Source: a phage
Sequence record: PZ154897.1
Length of the DNA stretch: 64,000 nt
Direction: 5' to 3' (one strand)
Below, piece after piece: positions 8,695 through 36,908 of the stretch. The notes under the pieces were generated by a model that was not told the DNA's origin, ran no database searches, and saw nothing but the letters and a program-made list of their open reading frames with translations. A program made the position numbers and the translations under genes. The stretch's first letter is position 1. Each line of letters opens with the position of its first letter.

Positions 8695-9018
8695 TTAGTC
8701 TTCTATGATATCTCTATCATATCCAAGTGAAATGAGAGTTTCTTTGAAGTGTTTAATGTTCTTTTGTCTAGAATCATTAATGAAAATGACTGGATAACGA
8801 ATGTTAAGAGATGTGAATCCAGCGCGTTTAGCAAGAGATACAATCAATGGACGATCATACTCGATCTTACCATTATTTGTAAGAACTTTATAGAAAGTAA
8901 AAGGAGCATTGAGCTCCTTTAGAAGTTTTGTAACTGATTGACATCCAGGACAACGACCTACTTCATCTGGAATTCCATAGACTTCAATCTTATTCTTTAA
9001 GTTCGAGTTTTGTTCCAC
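8695..9018 (-). CDS. nrdH: Glutaredoxin-like protein NrdH
   Basis: CPGC redox motif (EVYGIPDEVGRCPGCQS); ORF track 8695..9147 has a hydrophobic N-extension overlapping the upstream ORF, so start is placed at in-frame GTG about 9018; start uncertain. Confidence 0.55.
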   Translation of the reverse strand: MEQNSNLKNKIEVYGIPDEVGRCPGCQSVTKLLKELNAPFTFYKVLTNNGKIEYDRPLIVSLAKRAGFTSLNIRYPVIFINDSRQKNIKHFKETLISLGYDRDIIED

Positions 9019-27614: not shown

Positions 27615-28196
27615 CTAACCGAGCTTTTTAGTTAATTCATTCCAATGTTTTCTACACAAAGAAACATAAATTTCATCACCAATACAGATTTGATTACCTT
27701 CTTTAACTGGTGTTCCATCTTCCATTAATCGAGCTGTCATAATAGCTTTTTTACCACAATGACAAACTGCTTTTAGTTCAATAAGTTTATCTGCAATCGC
27801 CAAAAGTTCTTTAGAACCTTCAAATAATTTTCCAGCGAAATCAGTCCTTAGTCCATAAGCCATAACAGGAACATTATATGTATCAACAATTCGGCTTAAT
27901 TGATGCACCTGTTCAGTTTTTAAAAACTGGGCTTCATCTACAAATACACAATGAATATCTTTTTGTGCTTCAGCCCATTTATAGAACTCAAAAATATCCA
28001 TATCATCCGTAATAATATTCGCTTCCTGCTTAATTCCAATGCGAGAAACGACTTCACAGACAGAATCACGAGTATCAATAGCAGGCTTAAGAACTAATAC
28101 ACCCATTCCGCGTTCTTTATAATTATGCGCAGCAGTCAAAAGAGAAGCAGATTTTCCAGCATTCATTGCTGCATAAGTAAAAATTAAACTCGCCAT
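27615..28196 (-). CDS. tk: Thymidine kinase
   Basis: 193 aa; P-loop NAGKSASLL; C-terminal zinc-binding cysteines CHCGKK...CRKH. Confidence 0.92.
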   Translation of the reverse strand: MASLIFTYAAMNAGKSASLLTAAHNYKERGMGVLVLKPAIDTRDSVCEVVSRIGIKQEANIITDDMDIFEFYKWAEAQKDIHCVFVDEAQFLKTEQVHQLSRIVDTYNVPVMAYGLRTDFAGKLFEGSKELLAIADKLIELKAVCHCGKKAIMTARLMEDGTPVKEGNQICIGDEIYVSLCRKHWNELTKKLG

Positions 28197-32969: not shown

Positions 32970-33386
32970 TTAAATGTAAATATTTTTGCCGTAATACTTG
33001 TACCAGTGTGGCTTCATTAAAATTTTTTCATCGAGTCGTTGTTGACTCAACCTAATAGCTGATTTGCATGGATTATAATCATTTTTCCATTCTACTGGAA
33101 TATCACTGATGTCAGGAACTTCAGTATCTTTTATACTAAACCCGCGTTTTAAGCATTCCGTTATAATGTCTGATTGACGCTTTCGCAAAAATTCTAACTT
33201 ATCGTAAAAGAACGTAACATGACCAGAACCTAAAATAAACTCGGAAGATATTTTAAAATCTTTAACTCGTTTACCATTTGCCACGTGTTTACGAATTATA
33301 CCAAAAACACGTGGCAATTCACGGTATTCTGCGATTAAATGCTGATCAGCAAGTTCAGATACTAAAGTCAAATTAATACGAGTCAT
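32970..33386 (-). CDS. denV: Endonuclease V (pyrimidine-dimer DNA glycosylase)
   Basis: 138 aa; [29 protein letters not shown], recognised as T4 endonuclease V. Confidence 0.9.
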
Positions 33387-33410
33387 TTTATCCCTCCAAG
33401 TAACTGTGAA

Positions 33411-33442
33411 TATACTATCACAGTTACTTGGAGAAAGTAAAC
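33411..33442 (-). promoter_or_regulatory. T4-type early promoter upstream of denV
   Basis: gtaaac at 33437-33442; tatactatcaca at 33411-33422. Confidence 0.5.
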
Positions 33443-33446
33443 AACT

Positions 33447-33977
<531 letters not shown>

Positions 33978-34433
33978 TTAAAAGAGGCTGTTCATTATTC
34001 GGTAAAGTGAAGGACCCATCACATATTGCCACTGAGTACGAGGAATAAGAGCAAAAGCATCCATCTCTGGAATCATAACACCATCTTTATTTTCAAAATA
34101 AGACTCGCAATGGCAATTTCTAAACATCTCATGCTCTACTGGAATCGTATAATAAAATAACTGTAAGTCTTTATTACTAGAATATTTAAATACACCTAGG
34201 TCTTCTAGAAGGTCTGGATTATAATTATTAAAACCAGTCTCTTCTAAGCATTCTCTTCGTGCTGCATCTAGCGCGCTTAAATCAGAATTTTCTACACGGC
34301 CCTTTGGGATATCCCAGCGATGTGCCATCATTCCAGGCTTACGAGAACCAGTAACCCGACCCATAAATAAATCTTTATCTTCTGTCATAAAGATAATACC
34401 AGCTGATAATGTTTTCATTTTAATTTCCTGCAT
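33978..34433 (-). CDS. nudE: Nudix hydrolase NudE (e.1)
   Basis: 151 aa; Nudix box GRVENSDLSALDAARRECLEETG. Confidence 0.85.
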   Translation of the reverse strand: MQEIKMKTLSAGIIFMTEDKDLFMGRVTGSRKPGMMAHRWDIPKGRVENSDLSALDAARRECLEETGFNNYNPDLLEDLGVFKYSSNKDLQLFYYTIPVEHEMFRNCHCESYFENKDGVMIPEMDAFALIPRTQWQYVMGPSLYRIMNSLF

Positions 34434-34903
34434 TCAGTGATAAAGTTATTTAAATTTTGAGTATATTTCTTTTCATCAAAAATCTTTTGTTGTCTGCGTA
34501 GCCGCCATGGCATTTCAATGAACGTGTACCATATCCCAGATAATATTGCTGCTGTAAAAATATTAACAAGTATGGTTAAAAGAATCCAATCTCCTATTCT
34601 GTCCATTGGATTTTTTATAAAAAAGTAAAATACGAATGATGTCACAGGAAGACTAATAATATACCACAGAATCATAATTTTATCTGTGAACCAATCAGCG
34701 TTCGTTAATTTAGCGCGACCATTATGAATACATACGAATTTATCATCTGTTGCAGTAGATGGCTTAACTGGTTGATATCCCATTCTAAACTCCCTAATCA
34801 GCAAATTTTTCATATCTTCGGAACAGCCATTCCAGTCAACTCTATCAACTGGAATGCCATCATCCCCATCATCTAAATCATACCAGCGAGTTTTTAAAAT
34901 CAT
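34415..34903 (-). CDS. Membrane protein, 162 aa
   Basis: Two hydrophobic helices; C-terminus NFITECRKLK overlaps the SD and start of nudE. Confidence 0.5.
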   Translation of the reverse strand: MILKTRWYDLDDGDDGIPVDRVDWNGCSEDMKNLLIREFRMGYQPVKPSTATDDKFVCIHNGRAKLTNADWFTDKIMILWYIISLPVTSFVFYFFIKNPMDRIGDWILLTILVNIFTAAILSGIWYTFIEMPWRLRRQQKIFDEKKYTQNLNNFITECRKLK

Positions 34904-35265
34904 CTGATTTTCCTACAATCACTCACAAACTCTTTCATTGATTCATTTTCAATATAAGACATGTAGCTATTATATTCTTTTAATTGTATTTTGTAATCCT
35001 TTTTTCTTTGCCAATTTATTTTAAAATTATCATAATGAAAATATAGAATGATACAAAAGAATGAAAATAATGAAATAATTTTAGTATAGCGAAGTTCACT
35101 CCAAACTTCTATTATATTTACTGTGCCATCGATGTTTAAAATAAAACAGTCGTCAATTAACAATCCAAAAAGACTACCCGCAAGAGCTGCAGCCAACGCC
35201 ACAGCAAAAATTAAAAATGACTCAGGAAGCGAATATTTGACTTTATTTAGTTTTGGCTTTTGCAT
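34900..35265 (-). CDS. Membrane protein, 121 aa
   Basis: Two hydrophobic helices; C-terminus EFVSDCRKIR; ATGA overlap with downstream gene. Confidence 0.5.
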   Translation of the reverse strand: MQKPKLNKVKYSLPESFLIFAVALAAALAGSLFGLLIDDCFILNIDGTVNIIEVWSELRYTKIISLFSFFCIILYFHYDNFKINWQRKKDYKIQLKEYNSYMSYIENESMKEFVSDCRKIR

Positions 35266-35639
35266 CGTGATTCCTTAACAAATTTCATAATTTCATCAAA
35301 TTCATACGCAGCAAGTTTAAGCTGATATTCCTTTTTAATCTTTTTACACTGTGCTTTCCAATCACGTACGCGTTTACGATAATGCCTTCCTTGATACCAG
35401 TATCCTACCCAATTTACAGGTACTAATAAAAATGGAACTATTAATGGAAGAATTAGCATTAATACAAGTATTTCGCCAGAATCAATATCAGTCATAACAT
35501 CTAAAACACCTCCAATAATCAATAGAATTACAAATGATATGAGTATAACAGGACCTATTAATACATCAGTAGAAATTAGCTGACGCTTTGGTTCATACTT
35601 CACAGGTTTACTTGGAAGGTATAGTGATGGCTTTGACAT
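35247..35639 (-). CDS. Membrane protein, about 130 aa
   Basis: ORF track 35247..35660 trimmed to ATG 35639 (MSKPSLYL); C-terminus KFVKESRCKSQN. Confidence 0.5.
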   Translation of the reverse strand: MSKPSLYLPSKPVKYEPKRQLISTDVLIGPVILISFVILLIIGGVLDVMTDIDSGEILVLMLILPLIVPFLLVPVNWVGYWYQGRHYRKRVRDWKAQCKKIKKEYQLKLAAYEFDEIMKFVKESRCKSQN

Positions 35640-36216
35640 ATTCTCTACATTCCTTAACAAATTTTTCTAATAATAAATCGCTTTCAAAATTAGGATTTTC
35701 CACGAATTTATCAAAAAGATCATCAACAATAGTTAAGATATTCTTTTTACTAAGAATACGTTTATTTTCATGCTTTGTTTCAGAATCAACTATAAGAGTA
35801 AAGAAATATTTCTTTCCCTGAAATTTTACCGTAGTATCAATATAGAACAAATTTGACTTTTGTAAATTACGTTTAAACCATGCGTCACTTAAACTATAAA
35901 CGCCAAGATAATCATAATCGTCATTTAAATAACAAACCGTCCATTCAGGAGAAATGAAATCAGTAAATTCAACATCAAAATCACACGTCAATGAATGAAT
36001 TGATTCAATACTTTTAATGAGTATTCCAGGACGTATTAAAGACTTTTTACCTCTAGAAAATCTTCCAGAAAGACTTTCATCAGTTTCATATGAAGACCCC
36101 CAATAGTAATTACGTCCTTCTGCCATACGTTTAAGAGCATTTAGTAATTGGTCTGGAACATCAACCTGTCTTTGGAACTCTTCAAACATTGAATTGAAAT
36201 CACTTTGCATTTTCAT
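35608..36216 (-). CDS. Hypothetical soluble protein, 202 aa
   Basis: ORF track; C-terminus EKFVKECREYVK shares the junction motif with the three downstream membrane proteins. Confidence 0.5.
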   Translation of the reverse strand: MKMQSDFNSMFEEFQRQVDVPDQLLNALKRMAEGRNYYWGSSYETDESLSGRFSRGKKSLIRPGILIKSIESIHSLTCDFDVEFTDFISPEWTVCYLNDDYDYLGVYSLSDAWFKRNLQKSNLFYIDTTVKFQGKKYFFTLIVDSETKHENKRILSKKNILTIVDDLFDKFVENPNFESDLLLEKFVKECREYVKAITIPSK

Positions 36217-36224
36217 TCCTATTT

Positions 36225-36252
36225 ACTCCAAGTAATAGGGGCCGAAGCCCCT
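36225..36252 (-). terminator. Hairpin (AGGGGC-UUCG-GCCCCU) after ORF 36258..36851; weak U tract
   Basis: Inverted repeat 36237-36252. Confidence 0.35.
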
Positions 36253-36257
36253 TATCA

Positions 36258-36851
36258 TTATTTCAGAGAATTAATGTATTCCTGAACATCGGCAGAGGTA
36301 GTTTCAACCCCGGAAATATTACCGTTAAAGGTTTCAACTCGAGCAAGAGTATCTTCAATATCAACCTTAGTTAGCGCTGCGATTTCAACTACATCATCGG
36401 CAGTACTAATTCCAAGGGCATTTGCTGCACGAGTTTCACGGATATATTCCAATTTAACTGCAAGTTCTTGACGAGCATCATCTAATTCAACTACTTTCTT
36501 GGCGATTTCAATTCGCATTTCAGCATAACCATCAGCTTTAGTAGTCAACTGCTCAGCTGTTCGACGATATAGTAAACCGAGCTTAGCATGCATTGTTACA
36601 TCTTGACCTTCGGAAAGAAGTTTGCGAATTTCACGCTCTTTTGATTCGGCTTGTCGATTCTTTTCGATAACAAGTTCACGAATACGTTTTTCTTCATTAA
36701 TAGATTTAACAGAAGCAGTTTTTAGATCTTTAATTTTATCAAGCAGTTTTGCTGCTGCAGCAGTATACTGTTCTTCAACAGATAGATTTTTAGCCATAGC
36801 AGAACCAAGTTTAGTGCGAATAAACTCAACAATTTTCTTCAGTGTGTTCAT
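36258..36851 (-). CDS. Coiled-coil protein, 197 aa, possibly PspA/IM30-like
   Basis: Long heptad-rich charged helices ([45 protein letters not shown]); family assignment unverified. Confidence 0.45.
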
Positions 36852-36908
36852 AGTATTTCCTTAGATTGATACAATTAGATAATATCACGTTTTTAATAGA
36901 TTGTAAAC

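Follow-up and report, generated by a model that had tools for sequence, protein, structure and literature searches.

A C-terminal peptide tag shared by the overlapping genes e.5, e.4, e.3 and e.2 of a T4-type phage, its nested ribosome-binding sites and its apparent use as a recombination joint

In the phage genome of record PZ154897.1, the four consecutive genes e.5, e.4, e.3 and e.2 encode proteins that carry the same short peptide, F-[VI]-x-[ED]-[CS]-R, 3-11 residues from the C-terminus. The stretch analysed (64,000 nucleotides, here called the window) belongs to a Tequatrovirus. The peptide is probably a tag conserved at the protein level, with the Shine-Dalgarno (SD) sequence of the following gene nested in its flexible codons and with its copies serving as recombination joints; its bearers would share a docking role. 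Because the genes are packed as overlapping open reading frames (ORFs), the SD of each next gene must lie in the last tag codons.

Positions 33900-36900 of the window are 99.5% identical to Shigella phage SP21535 and 94.5% identical to T4. A comparison with the e region of T4, proposed in a preliminary description of this DNA, identified the four ORFs as T4 e.5 (95.5% identity to its T4 counterpart), e.4, e.3 and e.2. All are on the minus strand, and nudE and then the lysozyme gene e come next (Table 1).

The tag and the ribosome-binding sites nested in it

The motif was found in all four genes, as the preliminary description had it, though near the end of each protein and not at the end itself, with a further 3, 3, 5 and 11 residues after it in e.2, e.3, e.4 and e.5, respectively. 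The tails read ...NNFITECRKLK in e.2, ...KEFVSDCRKIR in e.3, ...MKFVKESRCKSQN in e.4 and ...EKFVKECREYVKAITIPSK in e.5, each up to the stop codon. Motif position 5 of e.4 is Ser (Ile in Mosigvirus), and a Cys stands instead directly after the Arg.

Six-frame translation of the window gives five matches to the peptide pattern, four of which are these tails. The fifth, FINDSR at 8767-8784 inside NrdH, was treated as chance, as was YVSLCR near the C-terminus of a 193-aa ORF starting at 28196. At the DNA level, the degenerate pattern TTTRT-N4-GANTSNMG occurs four times (0.52 expected), a number reached by none of 100 shuffles. Among the 416 six-frame ORFs (50 aa or longer) of a whole T4-type genome, only e.2, e.3 and e.5 have F[VILM]..C[RK] no more than 12 residues from the C-terminus; outside e.2-e.5, the Cys-containing pattern occurs in that genome twice, in reading frames of just 7 and 35 residues.

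An AGGA-type SD lies inside each of the four copies, which bears out the earlier statement that the motif contains the SD of the next gene. The SD-to-ATG spacing is 6, 6, 6 and 10 nt when measured from AGGAA or AAGGA. Stop/start overlaps on the same strand amount to 32, 19, 4 and 4 nt along e.5, e.4, e.3, e.2 and nudE, and each downstream SD is inside the upstream ORF, 5-10 nt before the ATG. The five genes are thus overlapping ORFs that, by their arrangement, are probably translationally coupled. Programmed frameshifting at the overlaps was rejected, since no slippery heptamer was seen there by inspection. A scan for promoters and terminators returned 21 promoter-like sites against 17 +/- 2.8 expected, that is, no excess, with none at the junctions and no promoter excess inside e.5-nudE. 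RNA folding of the four junctions was no better than that of shuffles (z +1.7 to -0.9), and an Rfam scan of them gave no match.

For nudE, the start at ATG 34418 (146 aa), which is preceded by the AGGAAA SD and agrees with orthologue N-termini, was chosen over ATG 34433. The latter, the start of the 151-aa form in the T4 annotation, falls in the E-C codons of the e.2 tag and is without SD. Wherever a tag copy has E-C at positions 4-5, the codons GAATGY contain an out-of-frame ATG.

Conservation of the peptide and its bearers

Junctions from five genera (13 in the table compiled) all retain Phe, Ile/Val and Arg, and Cys is retained except at two e.4 junctions. The codons turn over: Arg is AGG, AGA, CGA or CGT, Cys is TGT or TGC, Phe is TTT or TTC, and Ile is ATC or ATT. 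The SD occupies motif positions 3-4 (AAGGAA, GAGGAA, AAAGGA) in 8/13 junctions and positions 6-7 (AGGAAA/T) in 5/13, and AGG is the Arg codon precisely in those five. In Mosigvirus orf101 and Kanagawavirus orf92, the SD is in the R-G(-K) codons.

Orthologues of e.2 are present in Dhaka-, Gapriver-, Mosig- and Kanagawavirus. Those of Dhaka- and Gaprivervirus are 30-45% identical and end in FIEECRK; that of Mosigvirus is very divergent, lies further downstream and ends in FITECRNLR; that of Kanagawavirus (28% identity to the Mosigvirus e.2 query) ends in FIKGCRNGRN. Tags thus persist in e.2 orthologues that are about 30% identical or unalignable across the C-terminal half. The other Mosigvirus tails are FIMECR... 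in e.5, FVKEIRC... in e.4 and FIKECRK at the end of e.3. The cluster representatives of Tequatrovirus differ at position x (3) and in the transmembrane (TM) segments but never at F, E/D, C and R. Comparison of 14 distinct tails from the five genera places F at 0, I/V/L at +1 and R at +5 in 14/14, C at +4 in 12/14, E at +3 in 10/14 and a hydrophobic residue (L/I/M/V/A) at -3 in 12/14, for a consensus of hydrophobic(-3)-x-x-F-[IVL]-x-E-C-R.

The peptide appears to be the conserved object, because F, I/V and R are kept, the codons turn over, the SD moves and no RNA fold was detected; the codon comparison indicates purifying selection on the module at the protein level. The preliminary description had the peptide constrained by, or hitch-hiking on, the initiation region of the downstream gene. 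Given the four Arg codons, the mobile SD and a tag without an overlying start site in orf109 (below), the direction of constraint is, on the evidence of these alignments, largely the reverse, with the peptide conserved and the SD fitted in. The start region does dictate some residues: in Kanagawavirus, AAAGGA arises from Gly in place of Glu, and in e.4 the Cys that follows Arg belongs to xGA TGC, which contains the ATG of e.3 and in that register permits Cys or Trp only. The start region also acts on position x, which is free, on which Arg codon is used and on what comes behind the Arg.

The junction alignment proposed earlier was made at the nucleotide level, with each of the 113 genes crudely called in the window represented by positions -32..+12. 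The e.5/e.4 and e.4/e.3 pair is exceptional (0.09% of null pairs score as high), the e.3/e.2 and e.2/nudE pair is marginal (1.8%), and the four cross pairs of the six are at the background DNA similarity of random start-region pairs of the window. The four junctions are therefore not one repeated DNA element, as only one pair stands out, and it is the peptide that unites them. The exceptional pair shares AAATTTGTTAAGGAAT, the sole 16-nt exact repeat of the region, and the N-termini that follow its two junctions are alike (MSKPSL and MQKPKL).

Other small proteins of the e-tRNA variable region proved to bear the tail as well when related loci were scanned. Mosigvirus orf101 (locus L001, 7211-7516) is a 2-TM protein with the tail ...NLENFIKECRGK. 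The soluble orf109 of Dhaka- and Gaprivervirus (L009, 825-1154; L010, 633-962; L011, 678-1007) ends in ...NKLFLEYCRSDVQL (also given as ...LFLEYCRSDVQL), and the soluble, orf109-related orf92 of Kanagawavirus (L014, 88-366) ends in ...DLESFIQMCRGNQNVS. The 44-64 nt spacer that follows orf109 contains GAGGAG, an SD belonging to the next gene, so that here the tag exists without an overlying start region. When IMG/VR was scanned with the degenerate pattern FI-x-E-C-R-K-stop, the tag turned up only in known coliphage-type genera, in e.2 of Dhaka/Gaprivervirus and e.3 of Mosigvirus; the remaining dozen or so matches lay in tiny ORFs and were ascribed to chance.

Mosigvirus orf79 (L001, 5647-5886), ending in ...DLWDEYNIACREI, is a weak possible tag bearer. 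In Mosigvirus SHSML-52-1 (L001, 4790-5584), three tandem small genes (101, 90 and 65 aa) are inserted after e.3; all three end in W-V-[S/A]-S-S-x-x-C at the stop, and TAAGGAA with the next start comes after each. This is a second, unrelated C-terminal motif shared within the same variable region.

In hydropathy profiles, e.2 and e.4 have two hydrophobic segments, e.3 has one strong and one weaker segment, and e.5 has none; the two membrane segments that the preliminary description ascribed to each of e.2, e.3 and e.4 were thereby recovered. The charge distribution of these three proteins combines a net-negative loop with a basic tail after TM2 (net charge +4 to +9) of about 30-50 aa, ending in the tag. 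From this charge pattern, with its strongly basic stretch after TM2, the tails, and with them the tags, are predicted to be on the cytoplasmic side, and the segment charges indicate that both ends of e.4 are cytoplasmic. AlphaFold2 models are of low confidence (mean predicted local distance difference test, pLDDT, 40 for e.5 from single sequence and 52 for e.2 from a shallow alignment), and both draw the tail as a helix.

The three membrane proteins had also been described as paralogous. Their architecture and topology are common to all three (two hydrophobic segments, negative loop, basic segment after TM2), and e.3 and e.4 share the N-terminus M-x-K-P-x-L...VKY. The sequence support is weak: in segment-preserving shuffles e.3-e.4 scores z = 3.0, which drops to 2.1 once the tail is removed, and e.2-e.3 and e.2-e.4 with their tails removed score z ~0. 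Only the tails were aligned by hhalign (e.2-e.3, 16 columns, P = 1e-4; e.3-e.4, 37 columns, P = 2e-4; e.5 with e.2 or e.3, 11 columns, P = 4e-3). The C-terminal half of e.2, which holds the hairpin, matches Mosigvirus orf101 with a pairwise E = 4e-5. A diverged 2-TM paralogue family of e.2, e.3 and e.4 is plausible from the architecture; e.5, orf109 and orf92 resemble the membrane proteins only in the tag.

Recombination at the tag and competing explanations

The gene e.2 is missing from T2 and from some 55 of the roughly 500 Tequatrovirus records. In T2, e.3 ends in FVSDCRKLK and runs straight into nudE. The crossover is inside the tag codons, GAT|TGC AGGAAATTAAAATGA, so that the loss is bounded exactly by two tag copies, and it regenerates a complete tag and the nudE start site. 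In vB_EcoM-UFV05 (L018, 2001-2321), an in-frame e.4(1-31)::e.2(88-162) fusion of 106 aa, formed at TCCTGT microhomology, replaces e.4, e.3 and e.2, so that e.3 is lost; the fusion is carried by five contigs. In Mosigvirus IMG/VR 2974739009 (L008, 3946-4045), e.3 is a pseudogene: about 250 nt of its body are deleted, but the final 25 codons, tag included, are retained, as is the start site of the gene that follows. Because T2-type phages lost e.2 through a crossover inside tag codons, the tag repeats are, as far as the genomes tell, in-frame recombination joints. The same joints could also add genes; only loss was observed here. Of the cassette-style duplication with copied junctions suggested earlier, the T2 loss in tag codons and the 16-nt repeat are in agreement with it, and the finding that only one junction pair is alike is not.

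Several other explanations of the repeated tail have to be weighed. According to one, the peptide is a by-product of the downstream initiation region, where the SD and nearby nucleotides are selected and the amino acids follow. This would account for the AGGA-type SD inside the motif at 13/13 junctions with the F codon 17-26 nt before the next ATG, for the e.5 motif, which tracks the e.4 start and not its own stop 11 codons beyond, and for the start-dictated residues of Kanagawavirus and e.4. It fails to account for F, I/V and C, which lie outside the SD; for an Arg retained through four codons of which only AGG contributes to the SD; for an SD found at positions 3-4 in some copies and 6-8 in others while the peptide stays unchanged; for the tag of orf109; and for the four of six junction pairs that are no more alike in DNA than random start regions. 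It is unlikely, and already largely refuted. An RNA-level operator or structure, such as an AU-rich site for a RegA-type translational repressor, is hardly credible. The two upstream junctions do share AAAUUUGUUAAGGAAU exactly, and the repeat may resemble a RegA-type site. However, the sequence is shared by only two of the four junctions, the orthologous Mosigvirus junctions differ at those nucleotides and keep the peptide, and the junctions gave neither a stable fold nor an Rfam match.

The tag may also be a functionless relic of common descent, through duplication or gene conversion, which has diverged most slowly because it is dual-coding. The same architecture of e.2, e.3, e.4 and Mosigvirus orf101, the shuffle score of e.3-e.4, the match of the e.2 C-terminal half to orf101, the 16-nt identity of the two upstream junctions and the constraint added by overlapping frames are all in keeping with this view. 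Yet the overlaps of e.2 and e.3 are just 4 nt, so that F, I/V, E and C are not dual-coding there and are nevertheless invariant; the tag outlives the alignability of the C-terminal half between Tequatrovirus and Mosigvirus e.2; and it is found on soluble proteins with unrelated bodies, which makes a mere relic rather improbable. An action in cis, as a nascent peptide near the stop codon that tunes termination and re-initiation for translation of the downstream gene at a fixed ratio, is very unlikely. The four window genes overlap their successors by 4-32 nt with neither promoter excess nor spacer inside e.5-nudE, and the distance from tag to next start is fairly constant (17-26 nt), as such a role would have it. 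Against it, orf109 has its spacer and an independent downstream SD, and between 1 and 11 codons separate the tag from its own stop, a variation that is hard to fit to a defined position in the exit tunnel of the ribosome.

The probable explanation remains a tag conserved as a peptide. The module hydrophobic-x-x-F-[I/V/L]-x-E-C-R would be carried by 2-TM proteins (e.2, e.3, e.4 and orf101) and by soluble ones (e.5, orf109 and orf92), and the SD would be accommodated by the free position x (AAG/GAG + GAA), by an AGG Arg codon with AAA/AAT, or by xGA GGA. A crossover at the joint of tag and start site would remove a gene and leave a complete tag with an intact next start site. The set may have arisen by tandem duplication of a 2-TM ancestor and by transfer of the tail to unrelated bodies at the joints. 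As in docking motifs, the peptide is conserved with synonymous codon turnover and is borne by otherwise unrelated bodies; a docking tag is the best guess for a shared cytoplasmic function, with the short peptide bringing dissimilar early accessory proteins to one partner or modification, and with the invariant Cys and Arg as the likely functional residues. The spacing hydrophobic(-3)...F...C-R fits one face of a helix.

Several points weigh against this explanation. Since e.4 has no Cys at +4 and Kanagawavirus e.2 no Glu at +3, not every position is indispensable. The downstream frame in the overlaps inflates conservation after the Arg, and perhaps of the Arg itself in e.4. The soluble bearers orf109 and orf92 are few and were found by pattern, the helix is only suggested by models of low confidence, and all genomes examined are closely related coliphage-type Tevenvirinae, so that independent evolutionary sampling is modest.

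A wider proposal is that the tag is a targeting or docking signal for at least seven early T-even phage accessory proteins with unrelated bodies, some membrane-bound and some soluble, of the e-tRNA hyperplastic region, leading them to one partner, from host or phage, or to a modification of the invariant Cys/Arg, and at the same time a portable coding joint. This is tentative and on balance doubtful. To name ADP-ribosylation by phage transferases as the modification, given the adjoining Nudix gene nudE, is pure speculation. If the proposal were true, tag and start site would form a portable joint at which gene bodies are swapped in frame.

Related systems, novelty and neighbouring genes

Short terminal peptides are known from T4 proteins, including the C-terminal tails of gp43, gp33 and gp55 that bind the gp45 sliding clamp and the N-terminal capsid-targeting sequence of the internal proteins. 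As in those cases, a short motif on unrelated bodies implies a common partner, and the bearers of the internal-protein signal are also encoded close together. The present tag has no sequence resemblance to them and differs in its invariant Cys-Arg pair and in being borne by early accessory proteins, both membrane and soluble.

Translational coupling of overlapping genes likewise puts the downstream SD in the last upstream codons and forces some C-terminal residues or codons. Ordinary coupling, however, predicts SD-like codons, whereas here a six-residue motif has invariant Phe, Cys and Arg, and the same peptide recurs before unrelated downstream genes and is conserved irrespective of where the SD is placed. 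Overlapping genes thus reconcile two codes, the peptide being fixed and the ribosome-binding site migrating among free codons.

Modular shuffling in the hyperplastic regions of T4-type genomes has been attributed to promoter-early stem-loop (PeSL) cassettes (Arbiol et al., 2010, PMC2839356; Comeau et al., 2014, PMC4122927). Similar to PeSLs, the tags are short repeats between non-essential genes of a hyperplastic region, where recombination makes indels among close relatives, and the T2 e.2 crossover in the tag is an instance of a repeat that bounds an indel. In contrast to PeSLs, which combine a strong sigma-70-like early promoter with a stem-loop terminator, these joints are coding (peptide tail and SD), they show no promoter excess and no stable stem-loop, and the crossover is in frame, regenerates a functional tail and uses microhomology of a few nt only. 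The repeated joints permit in-frame loss of accessory genes, a coding-level addition to the promoter/terminator cassettes of these regions; gene swapping at portable joints, as in the wider proposal above, would be the coding-level counterpart of PeSL shuffling.

Each gene is an ordinary member of its own family, and both family classifications keep the four apart. Pfam has the uncharacterised Phage_T4_Y06M (PF26896, e.2), Phage_T4_Y06O (PF26873, e.4) and Phage_T4_Y06P (PF26876, e.5), and e.2-e.5 fall into the four PHROGs 2203, 2330, 2604 and 2607, with function-less annotation. Precomputed matches to PF26896 and PF26873 are cluster representatives 85-97% identical to the window proteins, and PF26876 matches e.5 of vB_EcoM-UFV05 (L018). 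Scans of e.2-e.6 with a local Pfam copy, NCBIfam and PADLOC gave nothing above threshold. An exhaustive HMMER search with e.5 against 1.84 billion representatives found only Tequatro- and Mosigvirus relatives and one spurious repeat protein. Word-indexed searches returned nearly only close relatives, with all e.2 matches at identities of at least 84% save the e.4::e.2 chimera, and nearly all e.3 and e.4 matches at 66% or above.

The literature searched held nothing relevant on e.2-e.5, and we found no description of the shared tail, of its interplay with the SD or of its role as a joint; they go unmentioned in the PeSL paper in which T4 and PST are compared. In themselves, e.2-e.5 are known ORFans. 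They are conserved T4 genes found in hundreds of sequenced phages, and the shared Cys-Arg tail provides a concrete handle on them.

Table 1. Coding sequences (CDS), tag codons, SD sequences and direct repeats of the e.5-nudE block (positions in the window)
Feature	Position	Strand	Description
e.5 CDS	35608..36216	-	Soluble, 202 aa; tag FVKECR plus 11 residues encoded in e.4 overlap; PHROG 2607
e.4 CDS	35247..35639	-	130 aa, ATG start; two predicted membrane-spanning segments; tail FVKESRCKSQN
e.3 CDS	34900..35265	-	121 aa; two predicted membrane-spanning segments; tail FVSDCRKIR
e.2 CDS	34415..34903	-	162 aa; soluble N-domain and two predicted membrane-spanning segments; tail FITECRKLK
nudE CDS	33978..34418	-	146 aa, start MKTLS; SD AGGAAA in R-K codons of e.2 tag; ATGA stop/start overlap
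e.5 tag codons	35644..35661	-	TTT GTT AAG GAA TGT AGA (FVKECR)
e.4 tag codons	35265..35282	-	TTT GTT AAG GAA TCA CGA (FVKESR); CGA and next codon TGC hold e.3 start (cgATGc)
e.3 tag codons	34912..34929	-	TTT GTG AGT GAT TGT AGG (FVSDCR)
e.2 tag codons	34427..34444	-	TTT ATC ACT GAA TGC AGG (FITECR)
SD AAGGAA for e.4	35650..35655	-	K-E codons of e.5 tag; 10 nt before ATG 35639
SD AAGGAA for e.3	35271..35276	-	K-E codons of e.4 tag; 5 nt before ATG 35265
SD AGGAAA for e.2	34909..34914	-	R-K codons of e.3 tag; 5 nt before ATG 34903
SD AGGAAA for nudE	34424..34429	-	R-K codons of e.2 tag; 5 nt before ATG 34418
Direct repeat AAATTTGTTAAGGAAT, copy 1	35649..35664	-	16 nt, exact; e.5/e.4 junction; repeat family D13
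Direct repeat AAATTTGTTAAGGAAT, copy 2	35270..35285	-	16 nt, exact; e.4/e.3 junction; repeat family D13

The intact 162-aa e.2 is present in the window phage and in most relatives, unlike in T4. In T4 strain wild (KJ477684; L002, 4811-5298), e.2 has a frameshift in an A-run; its annotated product has 102 aa, and the remainder is open in another frame as a 63-aa ORF ending in FITECRKLK.

Upstream of e.5, e.6 (36258-36851) encodes 197 aa, predicted from sequence to be largely helical, and is named 'host specificity protein' in several database records; no curated family matched it. It is better conserved than its neighbours, with DNA matches at about 80% identity in records that otherwise have no match to the 3-kb query. 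The 41-nt e.6/e.5 spacer is the sole real intergenic gap of the e.6-nudE block and the upstream limit of the run of overlapping genes, and it holds a hairpin, GGGGC-TTCG-GCCCC, at 36237-36252. Between nudE and the lysozyme gene e, a hairpin with an 11-bp stem, AATACCTCCTAAGTATTTATAGGAGGTATT (33942-33971), includes GGAGG; this is probably the structure known to occlude the start of e in early transcripts. Further on (32970-33941), denV directly follows the lysozyme gene e, and ipIII and ipII are absent here; at the counterpart position of T4, these internal-protein genes are located upstream of denV.

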